Shown: positions 47,755 through 49,439 of the stretch, piece after piece | Layout: each line of letters starts with the position of its first letter | Numbering within the stretch: the stretch's first letter is position 1 | NCBI GenBank assembly: GCA_046541415.1 | Contig: JBKHDI010000013.1 | Span: 1,064-65,063 of the forward strand | Source of the DNA: Phycisphaerae bacterium | GTDB taxonomy: Bacteria; Planctomycetota; Phycisphaerae; SM23-33 | Length of the DNA: 64,000 bases | Reading direction: 5' to 3' | The notes under the pieces: model-generated | Database searches by the model: none | Seen by the model: the letters and a program-made list of their open reading frames with translations, nothing else | What the model was told of the DNA's origin: nothing | Translations under genes and position numbers: made by a program

Positions 47755-47771
47755 TGTAACCGCCGTGCCAG
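47755..47771 (-). promoter_or_regulatory. Candidate sigma-54 (-24/-12) promoter for the minus-strand operon
   Basis: Minus-strand TGGCAC-GGCGG-TTACA. Perfect -24 element, -12 is TTACA versus TTGCA. ~20 nt upstream of the ATG at 47739. Confidence 0.4.
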
Positions 47772-47860
47772 AAGGTGCCGGCCGAGCGGAAGAAAGATAT
47801 AAACATAGTCATGAAAAAAGGTTGTGCTCCAAATTGTTCGCACTGTTCTTGCAAGCGGAC

Positions 47861-47909
47861 TATTGCACAATGCAAACAAAACGCAGAGTATATATTGCAC
47901 AATGCAATG
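47861..47909. promoter_or_regulatory. Two copies of a 15-bp element TATTGCACAATGCAA (inverted repeat TTGCA-N3-TGCAA), 32 bp apart
   Basis: Exact copies at 47861-47875 and 47893-47907, in the divergent region between the sigma-54 activator gene and the NifX-like operon. Confidence 0.5.
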
Positions 47910-47930
47910 AATGGGCGATACAATACGGGT

Positions 47931-49304
47931 ATGTCGCAAGAAAAGCAGGTCAATCTGGATGTGGGCCAGTCGGTGATCCTCGATTCGATCAACGAGGGGG
48001 TCTTTACGGTCGATCTGGACTGGCAGGTGACGGCCTTTAACGCCGCAGCCGAGGAGATTACCGGCGTCTCGCGCAGCGAGGCGATCGGCAGGCCCTGCTG
48101 CGAGGTCTTTCGCGCCAGCCTCTGCGAAAGTGCCTGCGTGCTGCGCCGGACGCTGGATACCGGCGATCCGGTCGTCAATGCCACCGCCCATATCACCACG
48201 GCCCAAGGGGATCGCGTGCCGATCCGCATCTCCACCGCGCTGCTGCGCGACCAGGCCGGGCAGGTCATCGGCGGCGTCGAGACCTTCCAGGATCTGACCC
48301 AGATCGAGCAGTTGCAGAAGCAGTTGACCCGGCGGTTCACCTTCGAGGACATCATCGGGCGAAGCGAACCGATGCAGAAGCTTTTCGAACTGCTGCCCCA
48401 GGTCGCCGAGAGCAGCTCAACCGTGCTGGTCACCGGCGACAGCGGGACCGGCAAGGAACTGGTCGCACGGGCCCTGCACAATCTCTCGCCCCGCAAGGAC
48501 AAGCCCTTTGTGGCGGTCAATTGTGCCGCCCTGCCGGATACGCTGCTGGAAAGCGAGTTGTTCGGCCACCTGGCCGGGGCATTCACCGATGCCAGGCAGG
48601 ACAAGCCCGGGCGGTTCGAGCGGGCCGACGGCGGGACGATCTTTCTCGACGAGATCGGCGATATTTCCCCGGCCCTGCAGGTTCGCCTGCTGCGGGTCCT
48701 CCAGCAGCGGCAGGTCGAACCGCTGGGCGGTGTCGAGCCGATCGACGTTGACGTCCGCGTGATCGCGGCCACCCACCACGACCTGACAGAACTGGTCGAG
48801 CAGGGCACATTCCGGCAGGACCTGTTCTACCGGGTCCGGGTGGTTCACCTGCAGCTGCCGCCGCTGAAACAACGCATGCAGGATATTCCGTTGCTGGTCG
48901 AACACCTGGTTGCCAAGTTCAACCGCCTCCAGGGCAAGGACATCGCAGGTTTGAGCCCGGATGCGATGGCGGCCTTGCTGCAACATGATTTCCCGGGCAA
49001 CGTCCGGGAGCTGGAGAATATCATCGAACAGGCCTTCGTGCTCTGTCGGGGGCCGATGATCCAGGTCCAGCACCTGCCGTCCGAGCTGCGGGGAGATTTG
49101 CAGGCGGTGGCCACCGGTCCGATGTCCCTGGCGGCGATGGAAAAACAGCTGATCGCCGACACCCTTCGCCGCTGCGAGGGCAATCGGTCGCTGGCAGCGG
49201 CCCAGCTGGGGATCGATCCGAGCACGCTCTATCGCAAGCTCAAGAGGCTCGACCTGCCCCAGAGCGACAGCGACGGACGCGGCCGCCGGTCCGGTCTTGC
49301 ATAA
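47931..49304 (+). CDS. Sigma-54-dependent transcriptional activator (PAS sensor, AAA+ sigma-54 interaction domain, Fis-type HTH; no receiver domain)
   Basis: PAS ([13 protein letters not shown]...). Walker [15 protein letters not shown] sigma-54 contact motif, ESELFGH. C-terminal HTH ([20 protein letters not shown]). Confidence 0.85.
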
Positions 49305-49423
49305 TGCACGATCGGGCGGCCCCAAGGGCTGGCTCTCCGCCCGGCTCGATTTGTCGCAATAAGCTGTAAGTGAATATGGGATATATTGTTGTGCGAAGTA
49401 TTCCGGTCCGGCTCTCTCCCGGC

Positions 49424-49439
49424 TGGTACGCTCCTTGCA
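49424..49439 (+). promoter_or_regulatory. Candidate sigma-54 promoter upstream of the NifX-like/Mrp-NifX operon
   Basis: TGGTAC-GCTCC-TTGCA. GG and GC are 12 bp apart as in the TGGCAC-N5-TTGCW consensus. ~38 bp upstream of the ATG at 49477. Confidence 0.55.

Follow-up and report, generated by a model that had tools for sequence, protein, structure and literature searches.

The stretch of DNA analysed here (hereafter the window) comprises 64,000 nucleotides (nt) of contig JBKHDI010000013.1 from a Phycisphaerae bacterium of the phylum Planctomycetota (assembly GCA_046541415.1), and holds a gene for an OrpR-type sigma-54 activator placed between two divergent operons with the gene content of an orp cluster. 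This locus very probably represents the regulatory core of that cluster, made up of two sigma-54 promoters and the sites of the cluster's own activator. We observed the motifs and gene content of such a core, the conserved placement, spacing, and promoter distance of a palindromic element, and covariation between this element and the recognition helix of the activator. Pattern statistics alone are weak, and we regard the comparison with related loci as the decisive evidence. The circuit is not new, as the evidence supports its identification with the orp/OrpR system of Desulfovibrio vulgaris (PMC8359166, PMC3897727), here with an enhancer sequence specific to the clade, and the window holds a well-supported, largely ordinary instance of it. 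The features of the locus are listed below, with enhancer positions counted from the predicted transcription starts and promoter ranks taken from a position weight matrix (PWM) built from 29 orthologous orp promoters.

45253..46140, minus strand: Orp3/Orp4-like MinD/ParA ATPase with two 4Fe-4S ferredoxin motifs, last leftward gene (Pfam Fer4, ParA, CbiA; PMC6345978)
46137..47009, minus strand: second Orp3/Orp4-like MinD/ParA and Fer4 ATPase (Pfam ParA 6.9e-18, Fer4 3.5e-12)
47002..47295, minus strand: DUF5320 small protein (Pfam DUF5320 1.4e-18), syntenic in many related loci
47329..47739, minus strand: divergent NifX-like (Nitro_FeMo-Co) protein of 136 residues, first leftward gene (Pfam 1.6e-4, under the curated cut-off; NCBI has the same 136-residue product)
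47755..47770, minus strand: leftward sigma-54 promoter, predicted start ~47744, 5 nt before the ATG (PWM rank 10)
47780..47835, no strand: AT-rich spacer from enhancer to left promoter (GC content 0.40-0.43 against 0.65 in the window), putatively a bend or a region of the integration host factor (IHF) type
47861..47875, no strand: predicted enhancer palindrome, left-operon proximal, TTGCA-CAA-TGCAA, centre 47869 = -125
47893..47907, no strand: predicted enhancer palindrome, left-operon distal, centre 47901 = -157, overlapping the -35 element of the activator promoter
47896..47924, plus strand: sigma-70-like activator promoter, TGCACA-N17-TACAAT, the sole sigma-70-like match in 45000-52000
47931..49304, plus strand: OrpR-type enhancer-binding protein of 457 residues with PAS (Cys56/65/69), AAA+ with GAFTDA, and Fis-type helix-turn-helix (HTH) domains (Pfam)
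49295..49309, no strand: predicted enhancer of the right promoter, degenerate palindrome TCTTGCATAATGCAC, centre 49303 = -147
49340..49400, no strand: AT-rich spacer from enhancer to right promoter (GC content 0.43)
49424..49439, plus strand: rightward sigma-54 promoter, predicted start ~49450, 27-nt leader including AAGGAG (PWM rank 1)
49477..49839, plus strand: NifX-like (Nitro_FeMo-Co), orange-protein (Orp8)-like (Pfam 1.2e-23)
49878..51089, plus strand: MrpORP (Orp9), a NUBPL/Mrp P-loop ATPase fused to Nitro_FeMo-Co (NCBIfam NF041136, 456.2 bits against a cut-off of 450; Pfam; named 'MrpORP' by NCBI)
51073..51540, plus strand: hotdog-fold thioesterase, last rightward gene (Pfam 4HBT; TIGR00369)

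The activator (NCBI MFP4354549.1, likewise 457 residues and starting at 47931) matches the Pfam families PAS_4 (5.8e-14), Sigma54_activat (7.8e-71), and HTH_8 (1e-14). Among 81 sequences, the three cysteines of its PAS domain (C-X8-C-X3-C: Cys56, Cys65, and Cys69) are kept in 76, 71, and 76, respectively, and the GAFTDA motif at residues 216-221, an unusual variant of the loop that contacts sigma-54, in 79. An alternative start giving 465 residues (ATG 47907) was rejected because its ATG precedes the predicted sigma-70 start, alignments of homologs begin at residues 1-2 of the 457-residue form, and NCBI uses 47931.

In D. vulgaris Hildenborough, OrpR (DVU2106) is encoded between two divergent orp operons (DVU2103-DVU2109), which are sigma-54-dependent and need OrpR as well as IHF (PMC8359166, PMC3897727). 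The OrpR site there is a 17-bp imperfect palindrome, GGGCGYRTTTTGCGCCC, at -131 (orp1) and -88 (orp2), and chromatin immunoprecipitation sequencing found OrpR essentially only at those two sites (PMC8359166, PMC3897727). The orpR gene itself is sigma-70-dependent and negatively autoregulated, and the -12 element was mapped at -11 to -13 from the transcription start (PMC3897727). DVU2106 is listed with GAFTDA (PMC4641369), and C52, C61, and C65 are required for the redox-sensitive [4Fe-4S] cluster in its PAS domain (PMC8359166); by homology, the PAS domain of the window activator would carry such a cluster on Cys56, Cys65, and Cys69. Orp3, Orp4, and the orp complex have been described (PMC6345978), and the DUF5320 protein of the window is presumably the counterpart of Orp5.

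The rightward promoter, TGGTACGCTCCTTGCA (TGGTAC-GCTCC-TTGCA at 49424-49439, plus strand), has the GG (-24) and GC (-12) dinucleotides separated by 10 nt, as expected of a sigma-54 promoter. An earlier note on this DNA, made from the letters alone, had placed it about 38 bp ahead of the NifX-like gene, and direct reading agrees, with a measured gap of 37 nt to the ATG at 49477 and AAGGAG at 49466-49471 in between. The leftward promoter, TGGCACGGCGGTTACA (TGGCAC-GGCGG-TTACA, minus strand, 47770-47755), has a canonical -24 element, TGGCAC, with GG present, and a -12 element, TTACA, in which AC replaces GC. The note had correctly recognized a minus-strand site here, but the site ends at 47770 rather than 47771 and lies 15 nt, not about 20, from the leftward ATG at 47739; moreover, the GG-to-GC spacing ascribed to both promoters applies to the right one, the left reading GG-to-AC. 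The PWM scan that the note had proposed ranked the right site first and the left site tenth among 127,966 window positions, and the consensus counts were statistically weak: the exact sigma-54 consensus matched once against 0.35 expected (at least one match in 29 of 100 shuffles), and the consensus with one mismatch 13 times against 9.9. The promoters are thus not significant by pattern alone and owe their significance to position and conservation. PWM ranks 2 and 3 belong to TCGGCACGCGTCGTGTTT (32910-32925, plus strand) and GTGGCATGCTTCTGGCTG (41158-41173, plus strand), the latter at the 5' end of an open reading frame (ORF) for a class II aminoacyl-tRNA synthetase with an editing domain.

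Between the activator gene and the leftward operon, the 15-mer TATTGCACAATGCAA occurs twice exactly, at 47861-47875 and 47893-47907, with centres at 47869 and 47901, 32 bp apart, each copy an inverted repeat TTGCA-N3-TGCAA, just as the earlier note had read them. A mismatch search added a third, degenerate copy that the note had overlooked, TCTTGCATAATGCAC at 49295-49309, lying across the stop codon of the activator gene. The three matches (at most three mismatches) compare with 0.28 expected, and three were reached in none of 100 shuffles. The note had also raised the objection that the 15-mer might be a common repeat; within the 64 kb, no copy was found outside this locus at the same tolerance. 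Two further candidates nearby were rejected. The palindrome at the stop codon has no T-run and was rejected as a terminator hairpin, a scan of 45000-52000 having returned no terminator-like site, the stretch between the activator gene and the right promoter included. TTCGCACTGTTCTTGCAA (PWM window 47837-47854, 16-nt pattern 47838-47853, plus strand, PWM rank 4) was dismissed as a sigma-54 promoter of the activator, as it is without GG and has enhancer-like half-sites, from which it is probably built; sigma-54-like matches are expected inside the enhancer because its half-site TTGCA equals the -12 consensus.

Placement of palindromes and promoters in related loci

We compared the window with 80 related loci (639 kb in total, one genome per species scanned) whose regulators are 40-71% identical to the window activator, drawn from Planctomycetota, Desulfobacterota, Nitrospirota, Hydrogenedentota, Ignavibacteria, and others. 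The regulator start in these loci is where the tblastn alignment begins, usually at query residue 9-16, and the predicted transcription start was taken 12 nt downstream of the C of the -12 element. Genes of the orp type adjoin the regulator in many of the 80 loci. Orthologs of the first leftward gene are the first orp gene behind a sigma-54 promoter in 26 of the 33 loci scanned for this.

The palindrome TTGCA-N3-TGCAA (at most one mismatch) was found 49 times in the 639 kb, and 38 of these matches, spread over 30 loci, lie within 200 nt after the regulator stop or 300 nt before its aligned start, typical centres being stop+9 and stop+42 exactly. Of the other 11, at least five lie ahead of further sigma-54 promoters, namely the pairs of displaced orp operons in loci L011 and L019 and one site in L001. 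The two copies of a pair are usually 33 bp apart and centred near -157/-124 from the predicted start; the centres fall at -156 to -159 and -123 to -126 for ten orthologs and at -153/-154 and -121/-122 for a further three. The left promoter of the window, with its pair at -157/-125, matches this geometry. For the right promoter, the only site is the degenerate one at -147; another Phycisphaerae locus with the same divergent layout (L002) has one site at -131. Counterparts of this degenerate window site are GGACGCATTATGCGTCC in L076, whose centre coincides with the stop codon, and palindromes centred at stop+9 in many other loci. The suggestion of the earlier note that the palindromes act as upstream activator sequences of the adjacent PAS-sigma-54 activator gains support from this placement and from the conserved distance to the promoter. 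Its wording of a complete regulon reaches further than a 64-kb window can show.

In L011 (pair at 6553/6586) and L019 (2565/2598), the regulator and the orp operon are separated by another gene, and the pair and promoter remain with the operon, 0.7-1.3 kb from the regulator; therefore, enhancer and promoter behave as one module. In the window and L002, this module appears in inverted orientation, on the divergent side. The single L001 palindrome precedes the sigma-54 promoter of a gene without an assigned identity. In two Desulfosarcina loci, L013 and L018, palindromes flank the regulator (start-97/-95 and stop+9); the downstream promoter of L013 precedes a gene without an assigned identity, and no MinD-like or DUF5320 genes were detected beside the L018 regulator, so that regulon content may differ in Desulfosarcina.

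Alternative readings of the left promoter and the palindromes

Several observations weigh against the locus being the sigma-54-controlled core of an orp cluster. The host is known as a metagenome-assembled genome (MAG), and the reading rests on sequence; no ORF with an RpoN box (rpoN) was found in the 64-kb window, so that sigma-54 is assumed to be encoded elsewhere in the genome. The published D. vulgaris palindrome GGGCGYRTTTTGCGCCC was not found in the window locus with up to three mismatches, and a D. vulgaris-like form occurred only in L076 among the loci searched. The IHF consensus WATCAANNNNTTR, which is that of Escherichia coli, had no match with up to two mismatches in the AT-rich spacers of the window. 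For the promoters, the pattern counts given above are weak, nine other window positions equal or beat the left site by PWM alone, and the left -12 element, TTACA, is without the near-invariant GC.

The last three points are those that favor the strongest alternative, which accepts the right promoter alone and puts the left TGGCAC-N5-TTACA down to chance; transcription of the leftward operon would then start from an unrecognized promoter of the sigma-70 type, with AGGAG at 47750-47754 as its ribosome-binding site. From the sigma-54 start this AGGAG would be untranscribed, which is odd for a functional Shine-Dalgarno sequence. Nonetheless, the strand of the left site is the expected one, its distance to the palindrome pair differs by at most 1 bp from that of the family, and, counted from the C of the -12 element, it lies 16 nt from the ATG as in orthologs; by our estimate, a site of rank 10 or better would fall by chance on that strand within about 2 bp of that position with a probability on the order of 4e-4. 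Deviant -12 elements occur at the equivalent position in L034 (TTGAC) and L006/L007 (TTGTT), and no sigma-70-like promoter was found on the minus strand in 45000-52000. We consider this alternative improbable, and, because of its position relative to the enhancer pair and the low chance of such a match, the left promoter is supported as real despite its deviant -12 element.

The second alternative concerns the two exact palindromes, which could mainly be an operator for autorepression of the activator's sigma-70 promoter rather than enhancers of the left operon. The distal palindrome contains the -35 element of this promoter, the only sigma-70-like one found in 45000-52000, and 6 nt separate the end of its -10 element from the activator ATG; in several orthologs, a -10-like box is likewise preceded at 17 nt by the TTGCAx of a palindrome, and OrpR of D. 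vulgaris represses its own expression. However, loci with all orp genes downstream of the regulator have the same pair after the stop codon, at -157/-124 of the sigma-54 promoter, with no regulator promoter nearby, and because the pair persists there, the enhancer is taken as the conserved role. That the pair serves mainly as an operator is therefore very improbable. The two roles are not exclusive, and the overlap of the distal palindrome with the -35 element suggests that autorepression may be an added function.

The recognition helices of the regulators bear on which protein the palindromes serve. Loci of the ATTGCA type, including the window (PSTLYRK), have a helix 'LGIxPSTL(F/Y)RK', and loci of the GGG/GGA type (GGGAACA/GGACGCA-N3-TGCxCCC sites) have 'LGI(D/S)K(N/D)TLRRK', as seen over about residues 425-440 (window 49203-49250) in a comparison of L035-L040, L061, L076, and L077 with L002-L027. 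The sites of Desulfobacterales loci read GGGAACA-N3-TGCACCC, and in the Desulfovibrionaceae locus L076 a GGACGCA-N3-CGCGTCC site precedes the regulator gene, whose stop codon lies at the centre of GGACGCA-N3-TGCGTCC. Most forms of the palindrome share the core GCA-N3-TGC with its 3-bp spacer, the Desulfobacterales sites and the upstream L076 site being off by one base in one half-site. The flanking bases of the palindrome thus covary with the helix, which argues that the palindrome is tied to this activator and not to another factor, and the window activator bears the marks of an OrpR-family member with diverged DNA specificity. The pairing of helix and enhancer type resembles a natural specificity switch within one regulator family. 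Although the palindrome is unlike the published OrpR site and its link to the activator is drawn from sequence, we give almost no weight to the idea that it serves another transcription factor or is a generic genomic repeat unrelated to the activator, since no further copies occur in the 64 kb, the motif tracks the regulator gene and orp promoters across phyla, its flanks covary with the helix, and the core and its placement on both sides of the regulator agree with D. vulgaris and L076.

Likeness to the Desulfovibrio vulgaris circuit

The locus closely resembles the circuit of D. vulgaris. Both systems have a PAS-AAA+-HTH activator with three conserved PAS cysteines and GAFTDA. Its gene separates divergent operons that code for MrpORP, a NifX-like or orange protein, two MinD-like Fe-S ATPases, and a small protein, each operon following a sigma-54 promoter (predicted in the window). 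The activator gene is flanked by palindromes with a 3-bp spacer, which lie some 90-160 bp ahead of the transcription starts, and its own sigma-70-type promoter (a candidate in the window) overlaps the control region. The enhancers differ, reading ATTGCA-N3-TGCAAT in the window and GGGCGYR-TTT-TGCGCCC in D. vulgaris, with only the GCA-N3-TGC core in common, and so do the recognition helices (PSTLYRK in the window against K(N/D)TLRRK in Desulfovibrionaceae relatives, the comparison being with these relatives rather than the D. vulgaris protein itself). In contrast to the single sites at -88 and -131 of D. vulgaris, the window has a pair at -157/-125 on the left and one site at -147 on the right. 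The window also has its first NifX-like gene on the MinD side and is without a recognizable IHF consensus; its predicted left leader is about 5 nt, whereas the D. vulgaris figures show Shine-Dalgarno sequences, and its host belongs to the phylum Planctomycetota.

Matches to the IHF consensus lie around -62 to -75 in several orthologs. A TGTTAC/CTTACG-like element is conserved halfway from enhancer to promoter, at about -75 to -55 (near -60), in the Planctomycete loci L008, L010, L014, L016, L017, L019, L024, L047, and L079, which may be a site for IHF or another bending protein; in the window, an AT-rich tract containing GTTTATA occupies the equivalent position.

What follows on DNA binding, looping, the redox signal, autorepression, and where transcription starts is carried over from the work on Desulfovibrio. 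On this model, activator dimers would bind the TTGCA-N3-TGCAA palindromes, the two left copies lying three helical turns apart at -157/-125 and the degenerate right copy at -147 over the activator's own stop codon. The activator would then assemble into an ATPase ring and, by looping over the AT-rich spacer, would open sigma-54 RNA polymerase at TGGCAC-N5-TTACA on the left and TGGTAC-N5-TTGCA on the right, so that low redox potential would switch on both divergent operons together. Binding to the distal palindrome, which overlaps the sigma-70-like -35 element, would repress the activator's own synthesis.

Classical enhancer-dependent sigma-54 promoters with paired activator sites include those of NtrC at glnAp2 and NifA at nifH. 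The locus shares with them a -24/-12 promoter, a bendable spacer, and tandem dyad sites that lie over 100 bp upstream and are spaced by whole helical turns. It differs in its input, for which we predict an Fe-S PAS domain instead of phosphorylation or a GAF domain, in an enhancer-promoter distance that is unusually rigid across phyla in this family, and in a promoter that abuts the start codon.

The finding raises no new question on the function of the orp complex. It extends an experimentally characterized, redox-responsive OrpR/orp circuit from sulfate reducers to Planctomycetota and several anaerobe-rich phyla. The pairing of enhancer sequence and recognition helix could help in predicting OrpR targets in MAGs and in examining how the specificity of Fis-type HTH domains changes, and the fixed -157/-124 geometry with a promoter abutting the start codon offers testable constraints on DNA looping and translation initiation.

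Start codons next to the promoters, and accessory genes

In 26 loci, the first orp gene (for the divergent NifX-like protein) has a sigma-54 promoter no more than 80 nt away, and in 19 of these the C of the -12 element is 11-15 nt from the start codon, with a mode of 13 (L002, L003, L005, L008-L011, L014, L016, L017, L019, L021, L023, L024, L027, L034, L047, L063, and L079). Correcting three alignments that start at residue 3, by our reading, gives 11-16 nt in 22 loci; the starts are called ATG in 23 of the 26, and the other three show an ATG at the corrected position, again by our reading. The corresponding distance in the window is 16 nt. Taken with the start mapping in D. vulgaris, these short distances predict leaders of 0-5 nt for first orp genes, and by the same geometry AGGAG at 47750-47754 would be left untranscribed from the left sigma-54 promoter. 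The -10 element of the activator, ending 6 nt from the ATG (TACAAT-N6-ATG), likewise suggests that its mRNA is leaderless. We therefore propose, tentatively and with somewhat less than even confidence, that enhancer pair, sigma-54 promoter, and start codon together make up a rigid unit of about 190 bp that is conserved in five or more phyla, which would place the first orp gene on a leaderless or almost leaderless sigma-54 mRNA, with the activator mRNA leaderless too. If true, enhancer-dependent transcription would be coupled, in a conserved manner, to translation that does not depend on a Shine-Dalgarno sequence; a targeted, limited literature search found no description of such a leaderless sigma-54 arrangement.

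One related locus, L066 (DATKXY010000048.1), carries orp genes, a sigma-54 promoter, and an activator of bacterial type (59% identity) on a contig binned as archaeal (labelled 'archaeon'). Archaea are not known to possess sigma-54, and the label is therefore probably a binning error.

The orp cluster of the window is bordered on the left by a convergent LpxL-like gene and on the right by a convergent znuABC-like operon. Its hotdog-fold thioesterase gene closes the right operon, whereas the homolog in L002 (478-870, minus strand) closes the left one, and it thus appears to be an accessory gene that moves between the two orp operons.

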